The position numbers were made by a program, and so were the translations under genes. Source: Vampirovibrionaceae bacterium NZW_1234 (lineage in GTDB: Bacteria > Cyanobacteriota > Vampirovibrionia > Vampirovibrionales > JAGQHJ01). From it: a stretch of 64,000 nucleotides of DNA. Shown piece by piece: positions 18,658 to 64,000 of this stretch. A model generated the notes under the pieces. It had not been told where the DNA came from. It saw only the letters and a program-made list of their open reading frames with translations, and did no database searches. The stretch's first letter is position 1; each line of letters starts with the position of its first letter. The stretch spans positions 159,151 through 223,150 of the forward strand of contig JBGUGD010000035.1 of the NCBI GenBank assembly GCA_041697335.1. The letters are read 5' to 3'.

Positions 18658-19827
18658 ATGAGGCCACAGGCCTCGGATACTCACCTTGCCCAATCACTTC
18701 GGTTTGGGGAATCCGTGTTATATACGGAACAACACACTAAACGCCCTCAAAATTTGATCTTGAACGCCTTTCAAGCTCGTTTTCCTAAAGGCACAAAGCT
18801 CCTGGGAACGTTTTCCCCCCTGTCTCCAGTTCGGATCATGGAAATGGTCCGGAATCAGGGCCGAGAAATTCGGCTACGGGATCCTGAAAGTCAGATAGAG
18901 CATACCATTACCTATCGCAAACACCCTGAGCTCTTTGAAAAAATCCTTGCCACTAACCTGGTTTTGTTGAATCGATTGATTGACAGCCCCCAGAAACTAT
19001 TAAAAATAATTGAGCAATGGGAAACACAAGCCAAAATAAAGGCATCACAGGAAGCCATTGCCCCTCGTCGTACAACATTTTTTCATGCCAGCGACATTGA
19101 TCGGCTAAATCCTGAGTTGATTAAAGCCTTTGTCCGCCGATTTCCTGCAGGCAGCCGCATGTTAGCCGCTTCCCAGTGGAATAGCCCCGTAATGGTATAT
19201 CAGGTTGCGAAAAATAACGGGCGCTATCTTGCCCTGAATCACCCCTCCCTCCCCAAGCGGGAACGAAACCTTCTCAAAACAGATGCGGAACATTTGAAAG
19301 AACTTCTAAGACTTAACTTACCCTTGATCAACGAGGTCATAGATACGCCGGAAGAGGCCTATGCCTTAGCTTTGGAGCGTCACATCGATCGGGTTTATGC
19401 CGAGAATCAGCGCCAAAATCGCCCCGAAGTTCAATACCACACCATTGATAATAAAGATGCGATTTACCACCCCTGGGGCTTTACTCTGGAAGGTGACTTG
19501 ATTCTGGGGATGAATGCCTTCTTCCATCCGGAAGAAACCTTGCCCATCACTCGGCATACAGGCCATCCACCTGAACTTAAAACTCAGTTTGTTGCGCTGC
19601 TGCCACCTGTGTTACGTGCCCCGTATGTTGATGATCCGGCGAACAGGGACATGGATCTCATGGAGGTCATGCGAGAGAGGCTGGTTACGGCAAAAACCCG
19701 AAATTTGCGCCCAGTTGTGTCTGAAGGCCTTCGGGAAAAAACACCTTTTATTATCGTTTCTCCTGACCAGCCTGATACGGCGCTGACACCGGAAGAGGCG
19801 ACTCGTCTCTTCCGATTGAAAATATAA
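18658..19827 (+). CDS. Hypothetical protein with a tandemly duplicated domain and an N-terminal LRFG motif
   Basis: NAFQARFPKGTKLL / KAFVRRFPAGSRML and NLVLLNRLIDSP / NLPLINEVIDTP. Confidence 0.75.
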   Translation: MRPQASDTHLAQSLRFGESVLYTEQHTKRPQNLILNAFQARFPKGTKLLGTFSPLSPVRIMEMVRNQGREIRLRDPESQIEHTITYRKHPELFEKILATNLVLLNRLIDSPQKLLKIIEQWETQAKIKASQEAIAPRRTTFFHASDIDRLNPELIKAFVRRFPAGSRMLAASQWNSPVMVYQVAKNNGRYLALNHPSLPKRERNLLKTDAEHLKELLRLNLPLINEVIDTPEEAYALALERHIDRVYAENQRQNRPEVQYHTIDNKDAIYHPWGFTLEGDLILGMNAFFHPEETLPITRHTGHPPELKTQFVALLPPVLRAPYVDDPANRDMDLMEVMRERLVTAKTRNLRPVVSEGLREKTPFIIVSPDQPDTALTPEEATRLFRLKI

Positions 19828-19925
19828 CACATCGAACATTTTGGCCTTGGAAGACAGTGGGTTGTTTCTACTCGTCTTCACGTTACACTGATATTATTCC
19901 CAACTTGTTGTGATGAGGAAGGATA

Positions 19926-21077
19926 ATGAGGGATCCCTCAAAACGCATTCTAATTCTTTCTTCCAGCACTGGCGGAGGCCATCAAAGCGCTGCATGGGCG
20001 CTTCAAGATAGTCTAACCCGGCTATCTTTGGGTCAGGTCCTGGTAAACATTACCCAAGTTTTAGAAGAAGCCACCCCCATCACACGTCATTTGGCCACGT
20101 TTTATAACTATCTGCTGCGATATAACCAGCATTACATGCGTTATTACTACTGGGCCATTGAGAAAATCCGGCCCTATGAGTCCCACATGCTTTTTCAGCT
20201 TTGCCGCAAATATGGTTCTCAGGTCATTGATCACCTCGCTCCAACCACATTGGTTTCCGTGCATCCTATGACACAGCACTTTTTCGCCTACATGCTGAAG
20301 AAACTCCGGCTGATCGATCGAATCCCCCTGATTACAGTAGTGACCGACCCTTGCCGGGGCTTCTGGAAAGGCTGGGCGTGTCCGGAAGTGTCGCAATACT
20401 TTGTGGCCAGCGATGAAGCCAAAGCCCAACTGGAGGAGTTTGGTATTCCCAATGAGCGCATTGCCGTTTCTGGAATGCCCGTTCACAGTCGATTTCAACC
20501 CGTTTCATCCCTTGACGAGAAATATGTCCTTCGTCAACAACTTCAGCTGGATCCCCATCGTTTCACCATCCTGGTTAACGCAGGCTGGGCAGGTGGTGGC
20601 AACATCCCGCAGCTGTACGAAACATTGATGCAGGGGTCGCCCGAAAACATTCAACTGGTTTTCATGGCAGGCCACAACACAGCCCTCTTTGAAGAAGCGT
20701 CTAAACTGGCTCAAAATGTACCTTTTCCGGTTAATGTTCTGCCCTTTACAACCAACATGCACGAGTGGATGAATGCAAGCGACGTGATGATTTCCAAAAT
20801 GGGTGGACTGACGACCTTTGAAGCTATGGCGTGTCAACTCCCTATTCTTGCCGATTGCTTGACACCGCCCATGCCTCAAGAGCAAGGGACAGCTCGTTTT
20901 GTGGAATCCAACGGGGCAGGTATTCTCATACAAACCCCTCACCAGCTGGTTCAAGAGTTAGATACCCTCATCCATGTACCGGGCCGATACGAGCAAATGA
21001 AGCAAGCCGCCGCACGAATCGGCCGCCCGGGGGCATCCGATCATATTGCCCGTGAGATCCTCCAGTTCTCAGCTTAG
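19926..21077 (+). CDS. GT28 diacylglycerol glycosyltransferase (MGDG synthase/UgtP family)
   Basis: ILILSSSTGGGHQSAA, VSVHPMTQH, TVVTD, GMPV, SKMGGLTTFEA, PQEQG. Confidence 0.88.
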   Translation: MRDPSKRILILSSSTGGGHQSAAWALQDSLTRLSLGQVLVNITQVLEEATPITRHLATFYNYLLRYNQHYMRYYYWAIEKIRPYESHMLFQLCRKYGSQVIDHLAPTTLVSVHPMTQHFFAYMLKKLRLIDRIPLITVVTDPCRGFWKGWACPEVSQYFVASDEAKAQLEEFGIPNERIAVSGMPVHSRFQPVSSLDEKYVLRQQLQLDPHRFTILVNAGWAGGGNIPQLYETLMQGSPENIQLVFMAGHNTALFEEASKLAQNVPFPVNVLPFTTNMHEWMNASDVMISKMGGLTTFEAMACQLPILADCLTPPMPQEQGTARFVESNGAGILIQTPHQLVQELDTLIHVPGRYEQMKQAAARIGRPGASDHIAREILQFSA

Positions 21078-21201
21078 CAGGCACCCCCCATGAAAAAATT
21101 GCCTTTGCACCATGGGCCACGTTATGATGAGAAAATACCTGATTCCGCTGTTTTGGTATTGGGCTCCGCCCGTCATTGTTAACGCCTTGTTGAATGGATG
21201 T

Positions 21202-21951
21202 ATGGGACTTCTAGACGGTAAAAAAGCATTTATTTCCGGTGGCTCCCGCGGCATTGGAAAGGCCCTATGCGAGGTCTTTGCCCGTGAAGGCGCCGATGTG
21301 GCCTTTAATTATGTGAGTTCCGAAAAGCAAGCCCAAGACACACTCGAGGCCATTCGTCGCCATGGTCGAGATGGGTTGGCTTATAAAGTCTCTGTGACCG
21401 ATAAGCACGGCATTGTGAAAATGGTGGATGACATCCAAGAGAAATTTGGCGAAATCAACGTCCTGGTCAACAATGCGGCGGTCAATAAAGCAGACAATTT
21501 TGCCACAACCACTGAAAAATCCTGGCTCGAAATCGTGGATGTCAATATCAACGGGTTGTATTACATTACAAAACCCATTTACAAGAATATGCTCCGGGCC
21601 AAAAATGGCGGACATATCCTGAATGTTACCTCTATTGGTGCAATACGTGCGTTGCCAACGTCGGTCCACTATGCAACTACCAAGGCCGCTGTGGTTGGCT
21701 TTACTAAATGTCTGGCTCGAGAAGCTGCAAACTTTGGTATTTCAGTCAACGGGATTGCCGCCGGTATCTTTGATACAGACTTGGGGCACTCTTTGCCCGA
21801 TTTATTTAAAAATACCTATGAAAACTGGTGCATGAAGGGCCGCTTTGGCAACCCGGAAGAGTTGGCCGAATTTGCCGCCTTTATGGTATCCGATCGCAAC
21901 TCCTATATGACTGGCGAAATCATCGTAGTTGACGGCGGAACGGTTATTTAG
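21202..21951 (+). CDS. Short-chain dehydrogenase/reductase (FabG-like)
   Basis: SGGSRGIG, LVNNAA, YATTK catalytic motif, VDGG. Confidence 0.92.
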   Translation: MGLLDGKKAFISGGSRGIGKALCEVFAREGADVAFNYVSSEKQAQDTLEAIRRHGRDGLAYKVSVTDKHGIVKMVDDIQEKFGEINVLVNNAAVNKADNFATTTEKSWLEIVDVNINGLYYITKPIYKNMLRAKNGGHILNVTSIGAIRALPTSVHYATTKAAVVGFTKCLAREAANFGISVNGIAAGIFDTDLGHSLPDLFKNTYENWCMKGRFGNPEELAEFAAFMVSDRNSYMTGEIIVVDGGTVI

Positions 21952-21966
21952 ACCCTGCTGGACACG

Positions 21967-22950
21967 TTAAGGGCAAATTCGCCCAGGCAAGACGAGGCGT
22001 CCTCCTGGGGGTAGTACCAAAGGCATTCGATGCTGAACCTCGACCATCTGTTTCTGCAAGCCCTGGAGTCGAGTCTCTAGATTGACCATCTGATCGGTTA
22101 GAGATTTGAGCTGTTTGGCCCGAGCCAGGTCCAAATCTTTTTGGGCTGCCTGGGATTTCTCCTGGGCAGCAGCCACAAGAGACACTTTCCTATCCATCTC
22201 GTCCTGGTTTTTTACCTGGGCCGTTTGTCCTTGCATGACGGCTTCAATCTGCTGCTGCTGAGCCTGAAGTGAAGCCTGCATTTGCTTTATGTCCGCACTC
22301 AAATCTGCCATTTTGGTTGATAGTGTGCGAAGGCTTTTGTGATTGCCCTCGAGTGCGTCCGCCTGGTTCTTCAGGGCCTCTGCAAACTTACTATCAGATT
22401 GCTTCTTCTCTGCTTCCCATTGAGCTTTTACCTGGTCCTGCTGCCTTTCGAGTTCCGCTAGCCACTCAGCCAGATTTTCAAAGTGTTGTTCAATCAACGC
22501 TTGGTGCTTCTTCAATCGGGTGGTCCAGGCCAAGTCCATCATGTGTTCCCGATTCTTCGCTAGAGTGTCGATGACCTCGAGACGATGCAAAAAATCCTCT
22601 CTAAGCTTTTTTTCTCGAGCCAAACTGTCGGCTTGATGCGACTCCAATGTCCTTTTCAGCTCGGTCAGATCGGCCTGATGCTTTCGCTGAAGCTGACCTG
22701 CTCGGTGATACCCATCGAAGGCAACTAGACCGGACACCCCTAGAAGCGAGGCAATCCAGACAAGCCGACCCCGCCATGGTGAGGATGTTGTGGAGGAGCC
22801 GCCGGCCTTTACAGAAGACGAAGGCAATGTGGGCAGGCCCTCTACACTGTTCCTGGGCGTCTCCCGACTGGCATTGTCCTGATGCCCGAAACGAAACGGT
22901 GCCCTTTGGAGTTTCTCGGTCACAATCGACGTCACAATAAAGTTACCCAT
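21967..22950 (-). CDS. Single-TM coiled-coil protein with an N-terminal FRFG motif
   Basis: GGAGG RBS; TM segment LVWIASLLGVSGLVAF; long Q/E/K/L heptad region. Confidence 0.8.
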   Translation of the reverse strand: MGNFIVTSIVTEKLQRAPFRFGHQDNASRETPRNSVEGLPTLPSSSVKAGGSSTTSSPWRGRLVWIASLLGVSGLVAFDGYHRAGQLQRKHQADLTELKRTLESHQADSLAREKKLREDFLHRLEVIDTLAKNREHMMDLAWTTRLKKHQALIEQHFENLAEWLAELERQQDQVKAQWEAEKKQSDSKFAEALKNQADALEGNHKSLRTLSTKMADLSADIKQMQASLQAQQQQIEAVMQGQTAQVKNQDEMDRKVSLVAAAQEKSQAAQKDLDLARAKQLKSLTDQMVNLETRLQGLQKQMVEVQHRMPLVLPPGGRLVLPGRICP

Positions 22951-23070
22951 CCACAATACCTCCCCAAAACGCAACCCAGTTCCAAGGATATCACAACTCC
23001 AAGCAATCACGCCAACAGGGGGACCCTTTTACAGAGTCCCCGTCATGAAAAATCATTCAATGCTGAAGAG

Positions 23071-23298
23071 CTAGGAGGCTTTAACCTCTTTGACAAACTC
23101 ACGGCTGTCGCGGTTTTTCTTCAACAAGTGCCAAGCGGTACCAAAATCCCGCAGTGAATCCCGGTATTGTGGAGAATCTTTTCCATAATTTGCAGCAAAA
23201 TACGTTAAATGCAGCTCCGCTGCCATCACTTGAGCTGTTAACTCACCAATCTTGTCGTCCAAAAGAAAGTTCTCCACGATAAACTCCTTTAACACCAT
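23071..23298 (-). CDS. Small hypothetical protein
   Basis: 75-aa ORF after an AT-rich promoter-like tract. Confidence 0.55.
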   Translation of the reverse strand: MVLKEFIVENFLLDDKIGELTAQVMAAELHLTYFAANYGKDSPQYRDSLRDFGTAWHLLKKNRDSREFVKEVKAS

Positions 23299-23411
23299 TT
23301 TACATTACATTTATATTTATATAAAAACAATTTATATTCATTTAATGCTACTCAGAGCTCGTTTTGCCTCCTAAACGGGAAAAAATACTAAACCTATACC
23401 GGGCCTGAGCC

Positions 23412-26131: not shown

Positions 26132-26321
26132 ACATTTCACTCTAGGCCAAAGACATTGGGTTGGCAAGCTCATGAGCGATAATGAGGTTTAAAACGCCCT
26201 CAAACTGAGAGTAATTGCTAAAAAAAACCAACAAGGGGGCTCTAACCATACACAGTGTAAAACACCAGAGCAAAACTCTACCTAGCCAACATAAGCTTTT
26301 TCAGGAGCTTTATTCGGCGAT

Positions 26322-26349
26322 AAAAAAGGGACCAGCCCATGCCAGTCCC
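26322..26349 (-). terminator. Intrinsic terminator after rplA
   Basis: Minus strand GGGACTGGC-ATGG-GCTGGTCCC-TTTTTT. Confidence 0.8.
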
Positions 26350-26404
26350 CAATAATAATGTGTGTGTATAAAAAGCAACCGGATTGCGACGACTCGTTGG
26401 TAAA

Positions 26405-27139: not shown

Positions 27140-27154
27140 GAGACAAACTCCTTT

Positions 27155-27187: not shown

Positions 27188-27211
27188 CTTCTATAACAAG
27201 GAAAAAAGAAA

Positions 27212-29284: not shown

Positions 29285-30085
29285 ATGTTGCCAAAGCTCC
29301 TACCCATCCTGGGCCCCAACGCGCCGGTTCTGTTTGGGGTCTCGCGCCGCAAACGCAATTCACTGCTCGGGCTTAGCCCAAACTGTGCTTATTGCGGAGA
29401 TACGTTTATTGCCAGTGTTCACAAACCTCATATCAAACCCCAACCCCCCACTTACGACCATATTCGACCCAAATCTGCCAAAGGAACCAGCCTCTATCCA
29501 AATGGCATTCTTGCTTGCCCACCCTGCAACAATGTGCGTCGCCAGAACATTCCTCTGCTGGAATTTATTATGGGCGATCGCAGCAAGTATTACTACAGCC
29601 AGGATGGGGAAATGGTTCTTCAGGTCGCAAGCCATGACCCACCAACCCCGGAAGCCGAGATTCAAGCCCGAAAAAAAGCTTTTTCGAATTACCTGAAGCG
29701 ATTTGTCAAGCGCCGCTATCGAATCAATACTGCTCATTCCAAACGCTGGTTCCCGCTGACCTTAGATAATCTGCTCTACCCTGTTTGGAAAAAAGGGGCC
29801 AAACCCTCAGACCCTGCGACCCTGAATACCCTGCTCAAAGAGCGTATCCATCAATTTATGAGTATTCTTGCCGACGCCGATCCGGGATTTTGGCTAAGCC
29901 AACACTTTCAAAAAATCGTCCGCCACGATTTTCGCACCCAACCCGAGCGCCGGGATATGTTTTTGGAGGCCTTACGACACCTGCGAGGTCAGCCCAAATC
30001 ACATGCAGGCCATGGACAGCCTCCTGTTATGCTATCCTTAGACCTGAAATCCCTACCCTTCCCGAAAACCGGAAGTGATGCTTAG
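29285..30085 (+). CDS. HNH endonuclease domain protein, paralog 1
   Basis: CAYCG..TYDHIRPKSAKG....NGILACPPCNN. Confidence 0.85.
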   Translation: MLPKLLPILGPNAPVLFGVSRRKRNSLLGLSPNCAYCGDTFIASVHKPHIKPQPPTYDHIRPKSAKGTSLYPNGILACPPCNNVRRQNIPLLEFIMGDRSKYYYSQDGEMVLQVASHDPPTPEAEIQARKKAFSNYLKRFVKRRYRINTAHSKRWFPLTLDNLLYPVWKKGAKPSDPATLNTLLKERIHQFMSILADADPGFWLSQHFQKIVRHDFRTQPERRDMFLEALRHLRGQPKSHAGHGQPPVMLSLDLKSLPFPKTGSDA

Positions 30086-30818
30086 CTTTTTTATCAGTTC
30101 AAGCTCGCCGCAAACACCCTCGGTATTGCACTTCAAAGGGCGCCTCGACCATGCCTCAGTCACAAAGAAACTAGGCCGGTTTGCCCCTCAGTGTGCTTAT
30201 TGTAGCGTGGCCTTTCTCCCTCCCTTCAAACAAGACCCCAAGCCAACCTTTGATCACCTCAAGCCAAACACGGCTCAAGGTCCCAAGACCCTGGAGAACG
30301 GTGTCCTTAGCTGTGAACCCTGCAACACACTGCGCCAAAGCACCCCTGTTCTTAACTTTCTTCAGGGCATTGCCGGGAACTATATTTATTCCAGGACAGC
30401 GGATGGTTATCTGGTGACGCCGCCCAGATCTGCCACCATGGCCTCCACCGATACGGTTTTAGCCCGACAGCGTTCTCTCTCCTCCTATTTGAGACGCATG
30501 CTGGAGCGCCGGGTTAAAGCCGAAGGGGATCCGAAGCCCAACAGTTGGTTTGCCCATGCCCTAGATAACCTACTCTTTCCTACGTGGGGCGAGGGACTAC
30601 AGCCAAACTCTCTATCCGTGCAAAATGCAGCTTGGCACCAACGGGCAACACAGTTATTTTGCCTTCTGGGAAAAGCTGATCCTCGTTTTTGGCTAGGTCG
30701 CCCCTTCCGAGTCCTTCTTGACAGAGACATTAAAGCGTTTCCTGAGCTGTATGGGCGTCTTGGTAACGTCATGACATATGTTCGACAGAACTTGTCCGCC
30801 CAGGGTCGTCAGCATTAA
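30078..30818 (+). CDS. HNH endonuclease domain protein, paralog 2
   Basis: CAYCS..TFDHLKPNTAQG....NGVLSCEPCNT; overlaps the stop of paralog 1. Confidence 0.85.
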   Translation: MLSFFISSSSPQTPSVLHFKGRLDHASVTKKLGRFAPQCAYCSVAFLPPFKQDPKPTFDHLKPNTAQGPKTLENGVLSCEPCNTLRQSTPVLNFLQGIAGNYIYSRTADGYLVTPPRSATMASTDTVLARQRSLSSYLRRMLERRVKAEGDPKPNSWFAHALDNLLFPTWGEGLQPNSLSVQNAAWHQRATQLFCLLGKADPRFWLGRPFRVLLDRDIKAFPELYGRLGNVMTYVRQNLSAQGRQH

Positions 30819-37407: not shown

Positions 37408-38004
37408 ATGGCAAACTTGATTTCGTTTATTCGCGCCTTGTTGGCCTGCTTCGTTGTGGTGCTGTTGCAAATTCACACCCAGGCCATTTATCTGACTTGT
37501 TTCTTCCTCACCATCATCGTCATCTGGATGGACGGGTTGGATGGGTATGTTGCCCGTAAACTTAATGAATCATCCAAAATGGGGGCGGTCATCGACATTC
37601 TCTTTGATCGAGTGGTTGAGATGGTTTATTGGATTGGGTTTCTGGCTTTGAGCTGGGTTCCGCTCTGGATTCCCCTGCTGGTGTCCGTTCGAGGCATTCT
37701 TGTGGACGGATTTAGAAGTGTGGCCTTGGAGCAAGGCTATACCGCCTTTGGCTCAACCTCAATGATGCAATCCAAGCTGGGCGTCTTCTTTGTCAGCTCA
37801 CGGGCCAGCCGTTGGCTGTATGCGGCCTTCAAGGCCATCGCCTTTTCGCTGACCATCCTGGCCTTTACCCCGGATCTCCCATCCTCTTGGGTGACTTGGG
37901 TCAAACCTGTTGCTTACCTCAGCATTTATATCACGGTGTTCTTTTGTGTGGTCCGGGGGGTTCCGGTTCTGTTGGAATCCCGGCGCTTTTTTGCCAAGAC
38001 CTGA
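37408..38004 (+). CDS. CDP-alcohol phosphatidyltransferase (PgsA-like)
   Basis: DGLDGYVAR..S..GAVIDILFDR signature; several TMs. Confidence 0.88.
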   Translation: MANLISFIRALLACFVVVLLQIHTQAIYLTCFFLTIIVIWMDGLDGYVARKLNESSKMGAVIDILFDRVVEMVYWIGFLALSWVPLWIPLLVSVRGILVDGFRSVALEQGYTAFGSTSMMQSKLGVFFVSSRASRWLYAAFKAIAFSLTILAFTPDLPSSWVTWVKPVAYLSIYITVFFCVVRGVPVLLESRRFFAKT

Positions 38005-38675
38005 TGTGGCCCCAATCGGGTTCGTGTGAGGACACTGGCATCGTCGAGACCATGACGAGTGACCCGACACGTCGGCATATAGACCTCCGGCCCATTACTC
38101 TGGTCTTCTTGAACCTGACTTGGGAAATGGGCTTTCAACGCTTTGGACCACCACCCATTGGGGAGGCCAAAAGAGCGGGTATCCAGGTCCAACAAATCTT
38201 TGCCGATACTTACTCGGCGTCGACGAAGGATATCCGCCACTTCAGCCATGGCCTGCTTCAAGGCAATGGACTTCTTCTGATCCTTTTCAAGCACATCAAA
38301 CTGGGCTTTGGCTTGCTCCGGGTTCTTGAATTTGCGAAGGATATAAATATCTGTGACCTCAGGAATGTCAGTGGCTCTGGGGAATAACCCATGCCAGCGA
38401 CCAAACTTGTTTTTAAAAAAGTACATCCGAATCGACAAGCCATCCATCAGCCAGTTCCATGCTTTTTGGATACTATTCCAAACAGGGATCTTACTTTCGG
38501 AACGAACAAAGCAAAGCCTCGGGTTTAGCGTTGGCTCCTTCGACCAAACACGGGCAGCTTTCTCGATCTGTTCCATCTCGGCTTTCGTGGCTCGTCGACC
38601 AAAACGTAACGGGTCTGAAGAGGTAACAATGTGCGATTGACCCATCCGACTTAGGAGGGGAGGAGATAAAGGCAT
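37926..38675 (-). CDS. Basic hypothetical protein with an N-terminal LRFG motif
   Basis: 249-aa ORF filling the gap; its 3' end overlaps the pgsA-like gene by 79 nt. Confidence 0.65.
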   Translation of the reverse strand: MPLSPPLLSRMGQSHIVTSSDPLRFGRRATKAEMEQIEKAARVWSKEPTLNPRLCFVRSESKIPVWNSIQKAWNWLMDGLSIRMYFFKNKFGRWHGLFPRATDIPEVTDIYILRKFKNPEQAKAQFDVLEKDQKKSIALKQAMAEVADILRRRRVSIGKDLLDLDTRSFGLPNGWWSKALKAHFPSQVQEDQSNGPEVYMPTCRVTRHGLDDASVLTRTRLGPHQVLAKKRRDSNRTGTPRTTQKNTVI

Positions 38676-38904
38676 GGCGGGGGTTCCTTCTAAAGGCTTG
38701 CTGCATCAACGCCCCTGAAAGCCAAATGTTGCGCCCAGAGTCTGATATGGCGTGACATTTGTTTACATGAACAGGGCTTACAATCGTTCCCTTAGATACC
38801 ATCGTCTTGGACTTTCCTTCGTTGGGTCGGGTTGCCAGACGAATCAATCCATACTACAGTCAAACGTATCGATATCGTGCCAAACAGAATGAATCACCCC
38901 TGCC

Positions 38905-40846: not shown

Positions 40847-42586
40847 ATGACTATTCATGCGTTGGGTATCAAACGCCCGCATTTGGCTCAAGCGCCACAA
40901 CGGATGTTCTTTGGCAACAACCCCGTCAATTATGAAAAAGACATCCAGGTCCAACTGGAACCACAACCCCTCAAGACGGTTCCTATTCAAGAACAATCAG
41001 GAATTGCCCGCTTATTTCTGCAGCCAACCAATCAGGTGAGTAATCTCTTTACCCCGGAAGGGCCTGTAGGTACCCATGTGGCTGCGCTCTTGCAAAAGCT
41101 GATCAATGAACGCCGACCCGAGCCCTTGAAAGACACCGTGGGCAATATTATTAGTCCCTTTAAACCCGATAGCAAGAAGATGGATCATAGCGTTCTACAA
41201 GCCCTGCGCCAAGGCTTAAATACGTTGCCCAATCAGTCGAAGACGGTTCACATTCAATTGCCTCCTCAAATAAAATCACCTGGTTTTTTAGCAAGAGAAA
41301 TCGCAGAAGAAGCGACGTTACGCGGCTACAACAATCGACTACACCGACAGAACAATCAATTTGAGTCGCAATTAAGCAGCATCCAAGTCCATGCGCTCGC
41401 CCCCTATCACCACGTGTTTCAGCAACTTTCTGAAGGACAGGCCATTGGCAAAGGCACTAACCTAGCCAAATTTCTGGTAGACGCCCCACCCAACCTAAAA
41501 AATCCTCAATGGGTCAGTCTTCAAGCCAAGACCATGGCCGATGCCTTCCCGGAAATCAAGACCCATATCCATGAGCGCCCTTGGATTGAAGCTCAGCGGA
41601 TGGGTATGTTCCTGTCTGTGGCCGCCGGGAATCAGCAGCGCCTGGAAGACCAGCCACGTCTTCTGGAAATGATTTATACCCCTCCCGGAGGCAACTATGA
41701 CAAAACCATCATGCTTGTGGGCAAAGGCATTATCTTTGATACCGGTGGCACCAATCTAAAAAACGGCAGTGATGCCAAGAGCGGCAAACTCTATATTCAT
41801 GGCATGCATGGCGATATGGCCGGTGCAGCTGCTGTCATTGGAGCCATGAAGACAATAGCGATGATGAAAGTACCTCATGTTCGTGTGGTGGCCCTAACCC
41901 CATTAACCCCCAATCGCATTGGCGAAAACGCCACGTTGCCGCACAGTATTGTTACGGCCAGAAGCGGCAAACGGGTTGAAGTGTCCAATACGGACGCTGA
42001 AGGACGCTTAATCCTGGGTGATGCCATGCATTACGGTGCAGAGAAGTATTCGCCAGACTTGATTATCGATATTGCCACGCTTACGGGCGGGAAAGTCGGG
42101 GCGCTGGGGGATAAAAATTCCGTAGCGGTGATGGGCAACTCCCTGGCCTTGACCAAACGCTTTACCAAACTTGAAGAATCCTTAGGGCGTAAAGCGGCGG
42201 CCGTGGAACTGACAGACGCCCATCGACGCTGGGTCACCAAGGATGGGAAAGGAAAAGCCGATATCTACAATTCGGTTGCCATGAAAGCCGGATCACAATT
42301 CGGTGTCTATGGAAAAGGCGTCGAGTTTGAACGAGAGAAGCATATCATCCATCACTCGGCTCAAGGTGGCGCTTTCCTCAAGGAATTTCTACCAAATCCT
42401 AAAACACCCTGGATTCATCTGGACATTGCCGGAGCCGAATTTGAAGCACAGGAGCACTTGGGCAACGAAGAGTATGCCACGGGTTTTGGGGTAAAAGATC
42501 TGTATATGATGGTTGATCAGGTGAGCAAGAACCAGCTGAAACTGACTATGCCATCAAGACTGTCGACCCCAAAAACTTCTGAATAA
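40847..42586 (+). CDS. M17 leucyl aminopeptidase family protein with a divergent N-terminus
   Basis: VGKGIIFDTGG..LK, DMAGAA, NTDAEGRLIL, DIATLTG, WIHLDIAG. Confidence 0.92.
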   Translation: MTIHALGIKRPHLAQAPQRMFFGNNPVNYEKDIQVQLEPQPLKTVPIQEQSGIARLFLQPTNQVSNLFTPEGPVGTHVAALLQKLINERRPEPLKDTVGNIISPFKPDSKKMDHSVLQALRQGLNTLPNQSKTVHIQLPPQIKSPGFLAREIAEEATLRGYNNRLHRQNNQFESQLSSIQVHALAPYHHVFQQLSEGQAIGKGTNLAKFLVDAPPNLKNPQWVSLQAKTMADAFPEIKTHIHERPWIEAQRMGMFLSVAAGNQQRLEDQPRLLEMIYTPPGGNYDKTIMLVGKGIIFDTGGTNLKNGSDAKSGKLYIHGMHGDMAGAAAVIGAMKTIAMMKVPHVRVVALTPLTPNRIGENATLPHSIVTARSGKRVEVSNTDAEGRLILGDAMHYGAEKYSPDLIIDIATLTGGKVGALGDKNSVAVMGNSLALTKRFTKLEESLGRKAAAVELTDAHRRWVTKDGKGKADIYNSVAMKAGSQFGVYGKGVEFEREKHIIHHSAQGGAFLKEFLPNPKTPWIHLDIAGAEFEAQEHLGNEEYATGFGVKDLYMMVDQVSKNQLKLTMPSRLSTPKTSE

Positions 42587-50922: not shown

Positions 50923-50923
50923 C

Positions 50924-50985: not shown

Positions 50986-53900
50986 TTATGCTTCGTAGGT
51001 GATATCGCTGCCTTCGTAAAATACGGAGGTGTTGAGGTTGCGGTTGTAGTAGAAGGTCTTGCCATTGGCATCGGTTTTCTTCTGCCAATCGGAAGCACTC
51101 CCTGCCAACTTGATATCGCTGCCTTCGTCTTTGACTCGAACTGTACTGTTACGAGCCGTAACGAAGATAACATCATCATCATGCTCATCATCAGTTTCGA
51201 TGGTGATATTTTGGTTTTGACCGCTTACATTCACAATGTTGCGACCGCCACCCAAATCAGCGGAGAAGTTGTTGTTACCGCCACCGATGTTGACGACATC
51301 GTCACCGTTGCCGACGGTCAACTTATCCCGACGGTTACGTCCGGTAATATCGATGTTTTGGTTGCCATCAGCACCACCAACTACGGTACCCTGGTTGTTG
51401 TTACCTGCCAAGGTCACATTGTTGTTACCAGAACCGGTCGTAATGGCTTGGCCATTGTTATTACCAGCGACGGTAAAGCTGTTGTTACCGCTTCCGGCTT
51501 GGATAGCCTGGTTGTTGTTATTGCCTTGCAGGCTTGCCGTGTTATTACCTGAACCGAACTGAGTGCTAACACTGCTGTTCAGGGAGCTGTCTTGGTGCGA
51601 GTTGTTACCTTCACCGGCCACCACTTGAGTACTACCGTTATTGTTGGCTGTGACCGTGGTGTTGTTGCCATCGCCAGCCGTAATGGTGGTGTTGGCGTGG
51701 GTAGTGGTCACCGTAGTCGTATTGTTGCCGTGGCCTGCATTGATGGTCGTGTTGCCTCGGTCATTGTTCACGGTGGTGGTGTTATTGCCATCACCCAATT
51801 GAACACCCACTTGGGTCCGATCACCTTGAACTGTTACTGAGTTGTTGCCATCGCCAGAGCGGATGGTAGCACTGCCTCCTTGGCTTTGCTGATCCACGGT
51901 GTTGTTGGCGTGTCCAAGGTTCATCGTCGTATTGGAATTGGTATCTCGCTGAGTTACGCTGGTGGGCGTATCATTAGAGGTAATGGTGGTCGTACTGTTG
52001 GAACTATTGCCCACAATACGAGTGTCACCGCCATCGTTTCGGGTATTAATGTTCACCACTCCGTTTTGGGCTTGGGTAAAGATGCTGGTGAAGCCATTAT
52101 TTTGAGTACCGACATTGATGCTACCACCGTTCGTATTGGTCCCGATGGTGGTATCACCATTGTTCTGAGTACGGATGTTGGTATTGCTACCAGTGCCTCG
52201 GTTATCTACCGCTACAGTAGTATCACCGGTATTTTGTGTTGCGATGTTGTTGGTGGCACCGTTACCGTTATTAACAACCGCCATTCCGGTATCACCTTGG
52301 TTGTTCAAGATAGCATTAGTGGTTGAACCATTACCGGTGTTGTTGACAGCCACTGCAGTAGTACCACCGGAATTCTGGGTGGCAACAGCCGTGGTCGCAT
52401 TATTGCCAGTGTTATCAACTCGAGCGGTAGTATTGCCCGTGTTGTTCGTTGCCACAACCGCAACCGAGTTATCGCCCTGGTGAGTAATTTGGTTGCTGCT
52501 GTTTCCGGTGTTTTGGCTTACGATAGCAGACTGCGAGCCGGCACCATTACTGTTAATTTGAACCTGGGTATCACCTTGATTTTGGGATTGAACCACAGTA
52601 ACGTTGTTGGCCCCGGTATTAGCAACCGTCACTTGGGAGTTACCCTGGTTGGCCATAGCAACGTCGGTCACATTGCCATTGCCTGTGTTAGAAATATTTG
52701 CCTGGGTGCGACCTGTATTAGCGGTTTGAACGATGTTAGAACCACCATTGCTCTGGTTCATCACATTCAGGAAGGTATCACCCACGTTGTTGGTACCAAT
52801 TTGAGTATCATGATTGTCACCATTGTTGCTTACCCGCACGTTGGTGGGTCCACCCTGGTTCTGTGTCAAAACGCCATTTTGGACACCATTACCCTGGTTA
52901 GCAATGGTCACATTGGTGGTACCTTGATTTTGGGTCAGAACAGCGGCATTTGACTGTTGAGAATCAATGGCCACGTTGGTGGTACCTTGTGGGTTGGTGG
53001 CACCTGTTGCGACTTGAACATTACTATTGTTGCGAGCTTCCACCGCCGTGGTGACGTTGGACGAAGCCTGCTGAATGTTGACATTACTGTTATTGGCTCG
53101 GACACCCACTTGGGAGTCGCCTTGTCCGCCCGTAATCTCAACATTGACATTGCTGTCTCTTACATCTGCAGCCACAATGTGGTTGGATGTTTGAGACGTG
53201 CCGGCTTTCACATTCAGCGAAGCATTTGCAGCCGTCGTAATGGATGCCAGGCTATTCTGTGCTCCTGCATTAATATTCAAAGCACCGCCATTAATGTTGG
53301 CTTGAACACCCGTATTGCCTTGGCCTGTTGCATTAATGGTGGTTGTGTTTCTAAGACCTCCCACCTGGAACAAACCGTTGCCGTTATTTGTAATATTGGT
53401 GGTGTTCTCGGTACCGCCAATTAAGAATTGGCTGTTGGAAGCCAAGAAGGTAGAATTGTTCCGGCTACCAGAGAAATTCGCCGTTAGAATGCCTTCTTGC
53501 TGAGCACCATTCAAAGTGTTACCAGTGCCATTCACATTGAGTATGTTACTACCATTGCCTAAAGACAGACTGGTGGTGTTGCCGCTGCCAGCCAAATGCA
53601 CTTCGGAACGGCCGGCACCCGTTTGGATGTTCCCGCTACTTCCAATACTGTCATCGACAATCAGCGTGTCACCGCCCTCATCTAGAATAGTGCTAGTACC
53701 TTGATCATTTTCAAGATAATAAACATCTCGGCCAGTGCCACTTTTCGCTTCAATTATATTTCGCAACCCCGCAAACACAAAGGAATTGCCATCGTTTCCA
53801 GCAGTAAACAAGATTCGGTTATCACTGCCACCACCATATAAATAGTTTTGGCCACCGCCCAGGTGCAGCTCATGATGATTGCCGCTGCCGATGACAGCAC

Positions 53901-54150
53901 CGAAATCGGCTCCTAAGCCGGTTTGCGAATAATTGGTATTGCCGACACCACCGGCTAAAATAACGGTGGATGCGTCATTACCAAAGAAGAAGTTATTTTG
54001 CTCTTCACCACCCTGTGCCACAATATTGGTAAATGGGGGTAAAGACACCGCTTGGTTAAACTGGTTCTGCGCAGCCGTGTTCCGGAATGCTGGCAAGTTT
54101 GCCAGAATAAACGATACATGATTATTCGGTACAATATTACTATTACTCAT
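50986..54150 (-). CDS. Large N/G/T/Q-rich beta-solenoid repeat protein (adhesin or surface fibre candidate), 1054 aa
   Basis: About 23-aa TxNxGxTxVxVxNxGxG repeats centrally and GxGNN/GDD repeats at the ends; no cysteines; no obvious Sec signal. Confidence 0.85.
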   Translation of the reverse strand: MSNSNIVPNNHVSFILANLPAFRNTAAQNQFNQAVSLPPFTNIVAQGGEEQNNFFFGNDASTVILAGGVGNTNYSQTGLGADFGAVIGSGNHHELHLGGGQNYLYGGGSDNRILFTAGNDGNSFVFAGLRNIIEAKSGTGRDVYYLENDQGTSTILDEGGDTLIVDDSIGSSGNIQTGAGRSEVHLAGSGNTTSLSLGNGSNILNVNGTGNTLNGAQQEGILTANFSGSRNNSTFLASNSQFLIGGTENTTNITNNGNGLFQVGGLRNTTTINATGQGNTGVQANINGGALNINAGAQNSLASITTAANASLNVKAGTSQTSNHIVAADVRDSNVNVEITGGQGDSQVGVRANNSNVNIQQASSNVTTAVEARNNSNVQVATGATNPQGTTNVAIDSQQSNAAVLTQNQGTTNVTIANQGNGVQNGVLTQNQGGPTNVRVSNNGDNHDTQIGTNNVGDTFLNVMNQSNGGSNIVQTANTGRTQANISNTGNGNVTDVAMANQGNSQVTVANTGANNVTVVQSQNQGDTQVQINSNGAGSQSAIVSQNTGNSSNQITHQGDNSVAVVATNNTGNTTARVDNTGNNATTAVATQNSGGTTAVAVNNTGNGSTTNAILNNQGDTGMAVVNNGNGATNNIATQNTGDTTVAVDNRGTGSNTNIRTQNNGDTTIGTNTNGGSINVGTQNNGFTSIFTQAQNGVVNINTRNDGGDTRIVGNSSNSTTTITSNDTPTSVTQRDTNSNTTMNLGHANNTVDQQSQGGSATIRSGDGNNSVTVQGDRTQVGVQLGDGNNTTTVNNDRGNTTINAGHGNNTTTVTTTHANTTITAGDGNNTTVTANNNGSTQVVAGEGNNSHQDSSLNSSVSTQFGSGNNTASLQGNNNNQAIQAGSGNNSFTVAGNNNGQAITTGSGNNNVTLAGNNNQGTVVGGADGNQNIDITGRNRRDKLTVGNGDDVVNIGGGNNNFSADLGGGRNIVNVSGQNQNITIETDDEHDDDVIFVTARNSTVRVKDEGSDIKLAGSASDWQKKTDANGKTFYYNRNLNTSVFYEGSDITYEA

Positions 54151-54506
54151 CTCTTCTCTCTCTAGCCTCCTACTTTCAAGGCGTGCAACAAAGGCACCCC
54201 TATACTCTCTTCTTAGTTTTCCTTCCATAATAAAAACAAGTATGAGTATTTTATTAACCTTTTGTATCTAAATGTAAATACGAATTTTTATCCTTTGCGA
54301 AGAATACAGATATAATCTTTATTTAACGCACAAGAACTTGCGTAAAACGCCCTGAATGCATTAAATACGAGCAAATGGGCTGGAAAAAGCTGAACCAGAG
54401 AAGGAACTATTTAACAAATACATTGAAGGCGTCATCAACATCCGGTATACTGTTACGCGGGATTAGCCTATTATCTTTGAGTTAGTTTGTTTACAAAGGT
54501 TGGCGT

Positions 54507-56746: not shown

Positions 56747-56862
56747 TGCCTCTGTACCTCCTCTTTGATGTAAAACGCCCTACATACTAACAAAAACCAC
56801 CGCCGATTTCAGGCGAATTAACAAATAATTTAGACCTTTAAACCCTGAAGTCAGTTAAGCCC

Positions 56863-60315: not shown

Positions 60316-60422
60316 AATCCATCACGCCAATTAATTCTAGTATTATACCCAAAAGCTGACCCAATTGCCCTCCTACATCTCACGGAGACAACTGGCTGCT
60401 TAGACCTTTTTCAGGTTTTGAC

Positions 60423-60908
60423 TTAAGGGTAAAGCCAACGCTGGTAAATTTCTTGGATTGAGCGAGAGCGGATGGTTTTGGCGCTGGCTACAGCTAACCG
60501 TATATTCACAATCCGACCTTGACGGTTCACCATAAAGTGAATGATATCCCCAGGCCGATCGGAAATAGCACGATCCACTTGAAATGCAGACAAACCACGT
60601 AAAGCTTGACGATTGACTGCTAAGATCTGATCACCCGGATAAATTTGCGCTCGCGATGCCGGCGTTCCGGGATACACTTCCATAACCACCGGATCCTTGT
60701 TTGGTGTAATTTCCAGATTGAACCCCACAATACCCGGGGAATTGTCGTTCATATCCTCTAAGACAGGCTCTGGCATCGTTCTCGTTTCAGAGACCTGTCC
60801 TCGTAATGTCGTGATGGCCTGTACAGGGTGCAGGCCGAACAAAACCATGAGCCAAGCCATACTCAGGCTCACCCAGACTACGCGATTAAGGATATCATAT
60901 CGTTTCAT
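60423..60908 (-). CDS. Secreted PDZ-domain protein
   Basis: Signal peptide ending VQA; GIVGF, EVYPGTPASRAQIYPGDQILAVN. Confidence 0.85.
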   Translation of the reverse strand: MKRYDILNRVVWVSLSMAWLMVLFGLHPVQAITTLRGQVSETRTMPEPVLEDMNDNSPGIVGFNLEITPNKDPVVMEVYPGTPASRAQIYPGDQILAVNRQALRGLSAFQVDRAISDRPGDIIHFMVNRQGRIVNIRLAVASAKTIRSRSIQEIYQRWLYP

Positions 60909-61046
60909 GCTGTACCTGCTTACATCCTAAACCCCTGAAGGTAGTGTAAAGCGTATTTCGCCTAATGCAACTATCGGCCAAATTAGCAATTCTTGAAGCC
61001 ATTTCTTATAATGGAAAACAGATCCCCCCTATATGGATGATTCTCG

Positions 61047-61358
61047 ATGACCCTCAATCCCACTTTTACTACCGATGACATGCGAGTTTGCCATGTACGC
61101 ATAATGGGTCGAGTGCAAGGCGTCTACTACCGCTCCAGCCTTCAACAACAAGCCCAGGCAATGGGTATTTTAGGATGGTGCAGGAATATGCCGGATGGCT
61201 CAGTAGAAGCCCTATTATCAGGCTCTAAAGAAGCTGTTGACGCCTTAATTCAATGGTGTCACTTAGGACCTCCCAATGCCCAAGTTGAGCGCGTTGAAGT
61301 CACGCCTCAGAATCAGGTCTCCGATAGCTTGGCCAATACCTTTGAGATTCGGCGATGA
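61047..61358 (+). CDS. acyP: Acylphosphatase
   Basis: [29 protein letters not shown]. Confidence 0.95.
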
Positions 61359-61972
61359 GTTTGGTTCTAACCCCTCAGCTTAAACGTCGCCTTGGGATTT
61401 CAATGGTCTTTGCTATAACGCTAGCTTGTGTCCCCTTTTGCCATGCCCAACAACTCGGGACTGAAACCGCATCCGTGGAAGAGACCACCTTCAAATTAAA
61501 TGCTACCAAGACCCTGAATCTCCCGCCTGCGATGTATGGCCTCTGGAGTATCATGGCACGCGTGGTCAAGAGTACTGCCCCTATTGGAATTTATTCCCCA
61601 GACGCCTCCGAAATTTGGGATTTATATAAAGAAAACGATCAAATTTACTTAAAAAATGTGGTTACTAACGCAATTGCCAATATCCATGTCGATCAGGTCC
61701 AAGGCGATACAGCCACATTTCACCACAGCGCCAGCACGGATGATGAACGTATGACGGTAATTGAAACACCAACCATTACAGTACTTGGAAACAAACTGAA
61801 TGGGATTAATCGGCAAGAGATTCGACTATTTCGCCGCGGCAAGCTGATGGCCGTGTATCATCTAGAAGTGCAGCTCCAAGGAAGTCGTTTGGCCGGCTCT
61901 AAAGTCCTTTTCAAGGACCCTGACTTCATTACACCGGACTTTGAGGTGGAACCACTGCGTTTTGAAAACTAA
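61355..61972 (+). CDS. Secreted hypothetical protein
   Basis: KRR followed by a hydrophobic segment ending CHA; ATGA overlap with acyP. Confidence 0.75.
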
Positions 61973-61999
61973 TAGGCCATTGTAACAAAGCAAAATATT

Positions 62000-62029
62000 A
62001 AAAAAGCCCTCGCTCTTGGTTGCGAGGGC
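62000..62029 (-). terminator. Intrinsic terminator
   Basis: Minus strand GCCCTCGC-AACCAAGA-GCGAGGGC-TTTTTT. Confidence 0.8.
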
Positions 62030-62051
62030 CAAAAAGTCTTTCTCAGGCAGC

Positions 62052-62300
62052 TTAGCCCAGGGCTGGCAAATGCAAATTCTGCTTGTCTAACAGCCAGGCA
62101 AAATAACTTTTGGCATCGGTGGTACCTTCAATAACCAAAGCCAAGGCGGATAAAATATCCGAGTCCACGTCTTGGACGAACTGCAAATCCTGAATGATAA
62201 TATTGGCTTCTCGAGCCGCTAAAACAACCTTCTCCAAATCCGGATATACATTCACGTTCACGCGTTCTACTTCCCTCATGATCTTCAAACTCCTCTGCAT
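62052..62300 (-). CDS. Small hypothetical protein (ACT-like size and pattern)
   Basis: 82 aa, alternating beta/alpha pattern, followed by a terminator. Confidence 0.6.
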   Translation of the reverse strand: MQRSLKIMREVERVNVNVYPDLEKVVLAAREANIIIQDLQFVQDVDSDILSALALVIEGTTDAKSYFAWLLDKQNLHLPALG

Positions 62301-62430
62301 TACCCATCATTATACTCTTATTTTTCAGAATCAGGGGACGGACTTACTTAGACCATCGCGTGTCTTTCAATATATTTCAACTATATCGATTTGCCAGATT
62401 TAAATTTTAATATTTTGAATGCTTAAAAGC

Positions 62431-62691
62431 TTACCAATTCTGGACCGAGCTTTCGCCGTCCTCATCAATTGGGGTAGTTTCACCGTCATCTTTTGAGGTC
62501 GATTCAATGACTCGTAAATGCCGGGCAAACTGCTTATAGAACCCGCAATTCTGCACCGTTACTTCACCGTTGAGTTCCACCACATTCAGTGCCAGTGCTT
62601 CCAGTAAGGGGCACATCACGCCCTTCAGGAAGTGCTCGCACGTATAGCACTGATCTGTCTTTTCAATGTGTATGGAGTCATCAGCGTACAT
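62431..62691 (-). CDS. Small Cys-motif protein
   Basis: CYTCEH..CPL..NCG; acidic tail. Confidence 0.7.
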   Translation of the reverse strand: MYADDSIHIEKTDQCYTCEHFLKGVMCPLLEALALNVVELNGEVTVQNCGFYKQFARHLRVIESTSKDDGETTPIDEDGESSVQNW

Positions 62692-62970
62692 AGGAGGCGT
62701 GTTTCCTAAGCAGGGATTACTTAACTATACAAAGTATACTAACTACACTTTAAGTATACCTCTTCTCACATAGAACTTAAAGAGGTCATCTAGCCAATTT
62801 GTCCATGTTTGTCAAGTACCTTCAAAAACGAAGTTTTACAAATCGTTACATTTTCAAGAAAACGATCGCCTCCTGCTCTTTACCTCAAAGCCAACGAAAA
62901 GTCCTTCGACTTTTCGTGTTGGGGTGAGGTATGCTAATAAAAATTGACTCAATCGGCTTTTTGAACAATT

Positions 62971-63594
62971 ATGTCAAAACATGCCCGCCCTCATTTTGTT
63001 TCTTGGATTCTCAAACTCACGCTTTTACTCATCATACTGATTGGGGGCGGCTTCATCAGTTTAATGTTTTGGCCGCAAGACACTTCTGTTTCGAAAAATC
63101 ACAAGCCAGTAGCAACTCTCGGCGTTTCTAACACCAGCCTCTATCACCCCATGCGCTCCGTCGACTTTATGGGTCAGCATTTTGTAATGCTCAAACATGA
63201 ACCCACCAGCCAACGAGTTATTGCCCTTTTGGGCACTGCCGGTAAAGGCTCCACCTATAATCAACTCTATGACAATCCTTTGAGTCCTTTTCAGCTTGAG
63301 TTGATGATGAAACTCTTTAAGCCACATTCTCATTTTGAGAACCGCACCTTAAAGGTAACAGCCGTCACACCAAATAAAACCGGAGTTTTAGCTTCGGATG
63401 CCGATTATTCCATTGCCTACAGGACCTATGATATTGCCCTGACCATTGATGGACAACCGCAGCACTTCGAAGCCTACGTTGGTAAGATCCAGCATCATAC
63501 CCAAACTGAAGGTCTGGTGTTTACCTTTAACCTTAAGGATAATGTATCCCTGGCTGTTTACCGAGATCTTCTTTCGAATCTTCAGACTCGATAA
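62971..63594 (+). CDS. Membrane-anchored hypothetical protein
   Basis: N-terminal TM WILKLTLLLIILIGGGFISLMFW. Confidence 0.75.
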   Translation: MSKHARPHFVSWILKLTLLLIILIGGGFISLMFWPQDTSVSKNHKPVATLGVSNTSLYHPMRSVDFMGQHFVMLKHEPTSQRVIALLGTAGKGSTYNQLYDNPLSPFQLELMMKLFKPHSHFENRTLKVTAVTPNKTGVLASDADYSIAYRTYDIALTIDGQPQHFEAYVGKIQHHTQTEGLVFTFNLKDNVSLAVYRDLLSNLQTR

Positions 63595-63725
63595 CACCTT
63601 TCATTTTTAGTTCAAAATTTGAAATAAGCTTGAAAATATAATTTGTTTCTGATAAAGTAAATTTCACTTTTCAGGTTGATTTAGGTTGATGAAAGACACA
63701 GTGAGGATTTAAAAGGGTGATGGGA

Positions 63726-64000
63726 ATGAACCGTTTGTCCCCAATGCTAGGTTATTCAGGCGTCTTGTTTGGCAAGAACCCCTCGCCCACAAAACGTCGA
63801 GAAGCTGAATTTGCTGACGTTCCCGATTGGGTCAGGGAGGAGCAGCAGGAACGATCCCGCTCAACTGAAAGAGAACTGGCCTATGCAGAACGAGCACCAG
63901 TTCGTCAAAAAGCCGTCCAACAGATACGAGCCACTCATGCCCGACTTGATGTGGTTCGCCCCTCCGCTTTCTCAGAGCAAAAAATTGGACGCTTTGCCAA
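63726..64000 (+). CDS. Hypothetical protein with an N-terminal VLFG motif, truncated by the window end
   Basis: MNRLSPMLGYSGVLFGKNPSPTKRRE... stays open to 64000; alternative in-frame ATG at 63720. Confidence 0.7.
   Translation, partial: MNRLSPMLGYSGVLFGKNPSPTKRREAEFADVPDWVREEQQERSRSTERELAYAERAPVRQKAVQQIRATHARLDVVRPSAFSEQKIGRFA

Follow-up and report, generated by a model that had tools for sequence, protein, structure and literature searches.

Seven proteins encoded in a 64,000-nucleotide stretch of the genome of Vampirovibrionaceae bacterium NZW_1234 (contig JBGUGD010000035.1, positions 159,151–223,150; hereafter the window) start with a short leader that ends in a word of the form [LVFM]-x-F-(x)-G. 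An earlier note on this DNA had read these leaders as a portable mark for the substrates of one secretion or processing pathway. The locus therefore raises the question of whether the leader is a genuine targeting signal and, if so, what would read it. We followed it through the whole genome (G000; 3.70 Mb, 41 contigs, 95% complete; the window is C26:159151-223150) and through further genomes of the class Vampirovibrionia. On balance we favour the reading that the motif marks proteins for export through a second, filament-less type III apparatus derived from the flagellum.

Definition and genome-wide frequency of the motif

The gene set comprised 3214 genes called with a hexamer codon model, with some starts misplaced. 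We compared residues 2–36 of each protein with 35-residue windows from the protein bodies, with no preset motif. The top word at the N-termini was RFG (121 genes vs 20.3 expected, z = 22), followed by PRF (67 vs 9.8) and LRF (67 vs 14.7). An iterated matrix placed Pro (26%), Val (25%), Leu (22%) or Ile (10%) at position −2 and Arg (92%) at −1, then Phe, an optional Ser, Gln or Ala (27%) and finally Gly (80%) or Ser (13%). The refined motif is [P/V/L/I]-R-F-(S/Q/A)?-[G>S,A,K], its Phe falling at residue 4–50. The Phe/Gly part of the original consensus was thus retained, but the pattern should be centred on Arg with Pro allowed in first place; the looser pattern also matched 9 of 287 conserved genes and, within the window, a Sec-like signal peptide (60908, reverse strand, VLFG).

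At 10 bits or more the matrix matched 298 of the 3214 genes, compared to 24–42 in five controls in which N-termini were shuffled in 12-residue blocks; at 12 bits or more, 274 genes matched vs 11–19. From these shuffled counts, about 260 of the 298 listed genes are really tagged, and the list includes some false matches, among them an Obg GTPase and an S1 paralogue which were both scored from upstream frames. The enrichment at N-termini over background on which the proposal depended is therefore present throughout the genome. It had also been proposed that housekeeping proteins lack the motif, and this was largely borne out: it was found in 1 of 287 broadly conserved genes, defined by clear homologues in distant families, vs 297 of 2927 others (Fisher: P = 1e−11). 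Close to a tenth of the proteome bears what is apparently an undescribed N-terminal sorting motif. In the open literature we found no account of it, or of a second type III system in Vampirovibrionia, although the duplicates may figure in the tables of flagellar genes in PMC4451040 and PMC3787301.

Properties of the leaders

The leaders of the 298 motif genes were rich in Ser (13.7%), Pro (10.8%), Thr (8.5%) and Arg (7.4%) and poor in Asp (1.8%) and Glu (0.9%), compared to 7.4%, 5.7%, 6.6%, 5.0%, 4.4% and 5.0%, respectively, in other N-termini. Their median net charge was +2, with a charge of zero or below in 15 of 298, and residue 3 was Ile, Leu or Val in 51% of leaders vs 21% elsewhere. Among the 183 genes with confident starts, Phe had a median position of 18 (range 4–50), and 24 of the 298 leaders carried two or three copies of the motif. 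A hydropathy window detected an h-region in 6 of 298 motif genes vs 532 of 2916 other genes, in agreement with the reported lack of Sec/Tat h-regions, and the tagged set cannot be classed as Sec or Tat signal peptides, for which a hydrophobic h-region is the criterion. Most motif proteins (264 of 298) had no transmembrane segment. Amphipathic helices were not in excess (hydrophobic moment 0.46 vs 0.44) and the C-terminal composition was close to that of other genes. A DNA- or RNA-level motif was rejected on codon use, since the motif codons roughly match the codon usage of the genome. Leaders rich in Ser, Pro and Thr, poor in acidic residues and free of an h-region are characteristic of type III substrates, and this is the chemistry of the tagged set.

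Conservation and cargo

The M17 peptidase encoded in the window had 34 close homologues, of which 31 were kept after two fragments and one fusion labelled as ostracod were dropped. The motif was present in the first 50 residues of 26 of these 31, vs 19 of 331 body windows, and lay anywhere from residue 2 to residue 41, often doubled, in leaders which were dissimilar by eye. The tag is a signal at the level of the protein, retained among orthologues whose leaders have diverged. For citrate synthase, all four of the leader-bearing nearest homologues carried the motif and formed a clade sister to the one with the genome's housekeeping copy; a fifth, independent gain of the motif was found elsewhere in the tree, and 2 of 107 short citrate synthase homologues matched. 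Duplicated genes have therefore acquired the tag on more than one occasion. A eukaryotic origin of the tagged citrate synthase was not supported, as its nearest listed homologues were bacterial and included the genome's own copy.

A motif-less paralogue exists for 57 of the 298 motif proteins, and the leader is often a plain extension. Tagged duplicates of cytosolic enzymes include citrate synthase, malate dehydrogenase, isocitrate dehydrogenase, PurA, Lon and FtsH. A Pfam search that covered 81 of the 298 proteins matched 30 of them and left 51 without a match. The matches comprised citrate synthase, isocitrate, malate and glutamate dehydrogenases, adenylosuccinate synthetase and guanylate kinase; NAMPT, CinA, NadD-like, MalQ, nucleotidyltransferase, enoyl-CoA hydratase, RtcB and ADP-ribosylglycohydrolase; and M16, S8 and calpain peptidases and FtsH-, Lon- and ClpB-like ATPases. 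The window itself contributes two HNH nucleases and the M17 peptidase. The nuclease and peptidase cargo first described is therefore present, but a large part of the cargo is made up of duplicate enzymes of central metabolism and proteostasis; that the motif is portable across unrelated bodies was borne out genome-wide. Catalytic motifs were intact in the malate, isocitrate and glutamate dehydrogenase, PurA, M16, M17 and FtsH copies and in both HNH proteins; for citrate synthase and Lon the search patterns used found a partial match.

Two genes are of note here. L011:11668-14724 (reverse strand) encodes a tagged, two-domain M16 peptidase of 1019 residues with an intact HxxEH, a candidate for removing leaders after delivery. 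G000:C2:10943-13102 (forward strand) encodes a sigma-70 family protein of 719 residues with a motif-like leader (ARFSPLTFGG, score 5.0); it adjoins two tagged genes and could be an exported sigma factor.

A second flagellum-derived export apparatus

G000 carries two copies each of FlhA, FliF, FliP and FliI. System 1 is a full flagellum; the components of system 2 are as follows.

C32:9387-20950: main cluster, with a flgF/G-like pair, flgB, flgC, a lytic transglycosylase, fliE, fliF, a divergent gene in the fliG position, fliH, flhA and fliI
C8:66046-69852: SctQ/FliN-like gene and fliO/P/Q/R
C29:178730-180600: flhB and a sigma-28-like gene
C30:50562-52826: fliJ, a FliK-like gene and a short FlgE-like gene, recognised through G001 homologues that lie next to the main cluster there

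The genome thus holds two complete sets of export gate and ATPase, as export of type III substrates would demand. FlhA2 is 37% identical to FlhA1, and the autocleavage site of FlhB2 is NPIH, as in the G225 copy. Only a faint resemblance to FliG_M was seen in the protein encoded at the fliG position; the model of this protein (predicted local distance difference test 73, predicted template modelling score 0.46) had no Foldseek match at E ≤ 0.001, and Atlas matches below 0.9 were to Melainabacteria hypothetical proteins and clusters bearing FliG_M. A complex prediction pairing residues 1–34 of the window protein at 18658 with the FlhB2 cytoplasmic domain scored 0.08 against a mark of 0.32 and was not used as evidence.

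In a FastTree phylogeny of 93 proteins, whose deep placement is provisional, the 29 FlhA2 sequences formed one clade (support 100) apart from both FlhA1 and the injectisome SctV, and on the flagellar side of a split from SctV which also had a support of 100. FlhA models gave FlhA2 a higher score than SctV models did, though neither score reached its cut-off. System 2 does not qualify as an injectisome: FlhA2 is outside the SctV clade, there is no dedicated secretin, and FliE and FlgB/C/F/G are present. Nor does it qualify as a motile flagellum, having no filament, L-ring, stator or canonical FliG of its own. VirB4, the type VI secretion sheath and the phage-type sheath had no match in G000 (95% complete), and VirD4 had none above the cut-off; with no VirB4 or coupling protein above the cut-off and with C-termini close to those of other genes, the tagged proteins could not be classed as type IV secretion substrates.

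FlhA matches were found in 112 of 151 genomes of the class, including 1 of 39 in family f5, which we take to be Obscuribacterales, and 0 of 1 in f10. The genomes of families f7, f8 and f9 mostly had a single FlhA match, of the second type. Flagellin was found in 0 of the 38 f7–f9 genomes and FliP in 37, and FlgH and MotA were each found in 0 of the 4 genomes checked. A system-2 rod protein, searched with one query, was found in 13 of 13 f7, 5 of 9 f9 and 1 of 7 f8 genomes. In the FlhA tree f7 clusters with Gastranaerophilales, and some other f7 genera retain the flagellar FlhA as well. Flagellin-less f7 genomes had two or more FHIPEP matches, yet one full-length FlhA. Directly after flhA2 in G034 (L118:12926-19999) lie five tandem orphan genes of 400–500 codons with similar N-termini and no match in G000.

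A shared promoter-like element

Motif genes were operon-internal in 7% of cases vs 28% otherwise. The word GCAATTT preceded 37 motif genes vs 5.8 expected, and is part of an element, GCAA[T/C]TTT-N4/5-TTGAGGG-TT, which lies mostly 60–80 nucleotides upstream of the start. At a score of at least 12 the element was found ahead of 53 of 298 motif genes vs 21 of 1864 other leading genes, and two-fold cross-validation gave 39 of 298 vs 12 of 1000. Besides the copy in the window there are about 60 sites in G000, and the regulon consists mostly of motif-bearing genes. In G146 and G161, which were outside the training set, 7 of 170 genes had the element; five of these seven had a leader by eye (IHFSG, IHFAG, ITFAG, PQFSA and PRFG), of which the regular expression flagged two. 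In G152 none of 60 genes had it. The shape of the element suggests an alternative-sigma promoter, and eight sigma-70 region-2 matches were found in the genome. A sigma-54-type promoter was rejected because the spacing does not fit the consensus of such promoters.

Motif and apparatus across families

Other families were sampled in 20-kb stretches, 100–400 kb per family, excluding f10. Some stretches were picked at FlhA, flagellar or M17 loci, so the percentages for f1 are not unbiased. The matrix matched 9 of 87 genes in G146, 4 of 74 in G161 and 2 of 56 in G152 (all f1), and 2 of 81 in G116, 2 of 82 in G017 and 1 of 77 in G029 (all f3). There were 0 matches in 150 genes of f2, 0 in 74 of f4, 2 in 245 of f5, 0 in 343 of f7 and 0 in 211 of named Gastranaerophilales. 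With a lineage-tolerant regular expression, which was widened after inspection of the data, the other f1 genomes had 13 of 203 genes vs 3.6 expected. The f7 and named Gastranaerophilales genomes together had 13 of 531 vs 7.2 expected (P = 0.049, marginal given the post hoc widening), with 8 of 181 vs 2.9 expected among their orphans (P = 0.022), and f5, in which both gates are missing, had 1 of 229 vs 3.4 expected.

In one f7 family, 108 of the best 120 among 866 homologues had hydrophobic-x-F-x-[A/G]. Phe was invariant across the rows and the flanks varied; these relatives are not independent of each other. Of the 108, 63 had the form INFSA, without Arg. The family is weakly homologous (E = 3e−6) to g0137 of G000, which has PAFG and a promoter-like element among the top-scoring copies. 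It is therefore probable that the tag occurs in the absence of a flagellum; where both gates are missing it is unenriched, and its mass expansion is peculiar to f1.

Interpretation and alternative explanations

If the tag is an export mark for system 2, which is the explanation we lean towards, the unstructured leader would act as a type III signal, and the alternating hydrophobic-x-Phe strand may be read by a chaperone or a component of the gate. System 2 would carry the tagged proteins out of the bacterium and probably into a cell of its prey or host. Since the enzymes require ATP, NAD or coenzyme A, the destination would be a cytosol-like host compartment, where the nucleases, proteases, AAA+ machines and the tricarboxylic acid (TCA), NAD, purine and glucan enzymes could work and turn the host's contents into absorbable nutrients. 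We put forward more tentatively, as possible rather than probable, a wider account in which Vampirovibrionia have a flagellum-derived injection system whose origin is separate from that of the injectisome. Within this family the system would read a true consensus and deliver close to a tenth of the proteome into prey, including the duplicated set of TCA, NAD, purine and glucan enzymes and AAA+ proteases, and so make the prey cell an external metabolic compartment; flagellum-less gut Gastranaerophilales would use the same machine and the INFSA tag on a host.

Several results weigh against export by system 2. A CesT-like class I chaperone (PF05932) was not matched at E ≤ 1 in G000, where divergent ones could be missed, and neither a needle nor a translocon was found in that genome. 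The sole FlgH lies in the flagellar operon, leaving system 2 without its own L-ring, and both secretins sit in the loci of the type IV pilus and Tad, which leaves the crossing of the outer membrane unexplained. The system-2 rod subunits lack the motif; a motif on the system-2 transglycosylase was dropped as a link to the machine because it was not kept in seven closer homologues. No promoter-like element precedes the operons of either system, save a weak 12.1-bit site 28 nucleotides before fliH2. The single pathway originally envisaged thus has a candidate machine elsewhere in the genome, but the motif load does not track that machine in several families. With FlhA2 present, the tolerant pattern was found in 0 of 147 genes in f2, 3 of 230 (2.8 expected) in f3, 3 of 73 (1.3 expected) in f4, 5 of 241 (3.5 expected) in f6/f11 and 9 of 328 (4.9 expected, P = 0.09) in f8/f9, and the f7 enrichment is marginal and rests on the widened pattern.

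Non-flagellar proteins leave through flagella in some pathogens, and the tag could be an export signal for the ordinary flagellum of system 1 or for another route not yet recognised, which we regard as unlikely. The passage of system 1 through the outer membrane is complete, flagellated genomes bear the heaviest motif loads (f1), and both FliD caps begin with a similar word (IQFGG and LSFGG); that word, however, is the FliD family's own N-terminus, and flagellins, FlgK and FlgL lack the motif. The variant is also retained in G144 and G225, where the one full FlhA is of the second type and neither FlgH nor MotA was found, and flagellated f2 and f6 samples showed no enrichment. Somewhat less credible to us is a role in processing or organelle targeting, in which Arg-Phe followed by Gly, Ser, Ala or Gln would be cut by an M16 peptidase, either of the host's mitochondrion or plastid or delivered with the cargo, and the leader would double as a transit peptide. 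The motif fits the hydrogenosomal short-presequence rule R(FNESG)/(ILFSAGQ) as given in the passages of PMC2597178 on such presequences, with the P2 Arg formally matched in G000 (92%). The net positive leaders (median +2) fit as well, and the cargo resembles organellar enzyme sets and includes the two-domain HxxEH M16 peptidase and the 719-residue sigma-70 protein. The Gastranaerophilales form, however, has no Arg (INFSA in 63 of 108), the motif is often doubled, the leaders show no excess of amphipathic helix (0.46 vs 0.44), and several enzymes show an overlap between the motif and the beginning of the homologous domain. Processing would still need an export route and can coexist with export through system 2.

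We give about the same low weight to an action inside the bacterium or its envelope at one life-cycle stage, with the tag as a degron, an adaptor site for a protease or a tag for export to the periplasm only. The shared promoter-like element indicates co-regulation (53 of 298 vs 21 of 1864), the second apparatus has no recognised outer-membrane exit, and the tagged proteins include paralogues of Lon, Clp and FtsH. Such a role would have to account for a tag that marks nucleases, orphans and duplicate enzymes but not the housekeeping counterparts of these duplicates, which is hard to explain within one cytoplasm, and for its presence on just 1 of 287 conserved proteins; enzymes dependent on ATP, NAD or coenzyme A would not work in the periplasm. 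Chance or annotation artefact, through wrong starts or compositional bias, could be argued from the four of seven window cases that score under 6 bits and from the starts misplaced by the caller. It is refuted genome-wide by the word screen, by the 274 matches vs 11–19 in composition-preserving shuffles and by the near-absence of the motif from conserved genes, and with the conservation in orthologues and the promoter signal replicated in two other genomes we consider it hardly credible.

Relation to known systems

To our knowledge, known type III signals share no linear consensus. The tag resembles them in being N-terminal, free of an h-region, rich in Ser, Pro and Thr, poor in acidic residues and with an aliphatic residue near position 3; it differs in that hundreds of proteins share one motif of 4–5 residues, and injectisome SctV, SctC and CesT were not found in G000. 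Chlamydia secretes metabolic enzymes, including the glycogen enzyme MalQ, by type III secretion according to passages of PMC4829429, so that metabolic enzymes such as MalQ occur in both cargoes. The flagellar gate recognition motif, as described in passages of PMC8983047, is likewise led by Phe in a disordered N-terminus with small non-polar residues at the extreme N-terminus. Its consensus differs, the system-2 rod subunits do not have ours, and the positions of Phe here (median 18, range 4–50) depart from the rule those passages give. Like the short mitochondrial, hydrogenosomal and mitosomal presequences covered in passages of PMC2597178, the tag belongs to a short positive leader ending in R-F then G/S/A/Q on metabolic enzymes; here, by contrast, the genes are bacterial, a hydrophobic residue or Pro is needed before Arg, and Arg is absent from the Gastranaerophilales form.

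System 2 keeps gate and ATPase without filament or motor, as do the Myxococcales non-flagellar type III secretion systems (PMC3459982), the Buchnera basal bodies and the Lysobacter flagellar type III secretion system. It retains FliE and FlgB/C/F/G, while the Myxococcales systems lack FlgBCDEK and FliEG in the passages of PMC3459982 that describe them. Unlike these systems, it stands beside a full flagellum in many genomes, has its own FlhA clade outside SctV and extends across most of a class.

In the model for Vampirovibrio chlorellavorus given in passages of PMC4451040, a conjugative type IV secretion system delivers hydrolytic enzymes to the alga via a spike seen by electron microscopy, with no signal named there; VirB4 was unmatched in G000. 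Export of tagged proteins by system 2 would offer an alternative to this model of predation on algae. The partial flagellum of MEL.A1 is read as ongoing reduction in passages of PMC3787301, which list two flhA for ACD20 without comment. The partial flagella of gut Melainabacteria would be recast as a conserved secretion device, and such a device in uncultured gut bacteria would suggest dependence on a host or prey cell. Were hundreds of substrates to share a discrete motif, type III recognition could be tested directly by point mutation and effector repertoires could be read from sequence, and the tagged duplicates suggest that cytosolic enzymes can be recruited for export by about 20 added residues.

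Tagged genes and neighbouring features of the window

All seven N-termini quoted in the earlier note were present, every one on an ATG, with leaders of 12–22 residues that held at most one Asp or Glu. They are listed here with matrix scores from the quoted starts and the positions of the motif codons.

18658..19827, forward: orphan protein of 389 residues, leader and LRFG (18697-18708); score 17.4, no Pfam match
21967..22950, reverse: protein of 327 residues, leader and FRFG (22896-22885), a short hydrophobic stretch and a long Q/E/K/A-rich region; score 5.6, no Pfam match
29285..30085, forward: HNH nuclease 1, leader and VLFG (29327-29338); PF01844 E = 7e−8, score 10.3, CxxC..H..N..CxxCN present
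30078..30818, forward: HNH nuclease 2, leader and LHFKG (30126-30140); PF01844 E = 2e−5, score 3.0, weak variant
37926..38675, reverse: orphan protein of 249 residues, leader and LRFG (38609-38598); score 13.6, or 18.6 from the second Met, no Pfam match
38706..38735, reverse: copy of the promoter-like element, beginning 57 nucleotides ahead of the start at 38675; score 18.2
40847..42586, forward: M17 leucyl aminopeptidase, third copy, leader-bearing, MFFG (40904-40915); NTDAEGR intact, motif in 26 of 31 full-length homologues
63726..64000, forward: gene start cut by the contig end, leader and VLFG (63762-63773); score 3.5, doubtful member

Three cases (18658, 38675 and 29285) therefore score at least 10 bits, and four are weak, non-Arg or atypical variants. 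Among the latter, the M17 gene at 40847 (score 5.7) is supported despite its low score by conservation in orthologues; it has two leaderless paralogues elsewhere in the genome. The two HNH nucleases are 33% identical, and the Q/E/K/A-rich region of the protein at 21967..22950 is read from its composition as a probable coiled coil.

At 9640-10239 (forward strand) the window has a low-complexity open reading frame rich in Gln, Pro, Phe and Gly, with PAFSG and several QFG words, which was left unscored as the opposite-strand frame had been called. At 50986-54228 (reverse strand) it encodes a repeat protein of about 1050 residues, rich in Asn, Gly and Thr, adhesin- or RTX (repeats-in-toxin)-like by composition and without the motif. 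Two flagellin genes lie at 290-2858 (reverse strand) with a third just beyond the window edge; in the class search, flagellin-domain matches reached up to 31 per genome in family f6. The two FliD paralogues of the genome, at G000:C5:100662 and C5:141547, are 48% identical.

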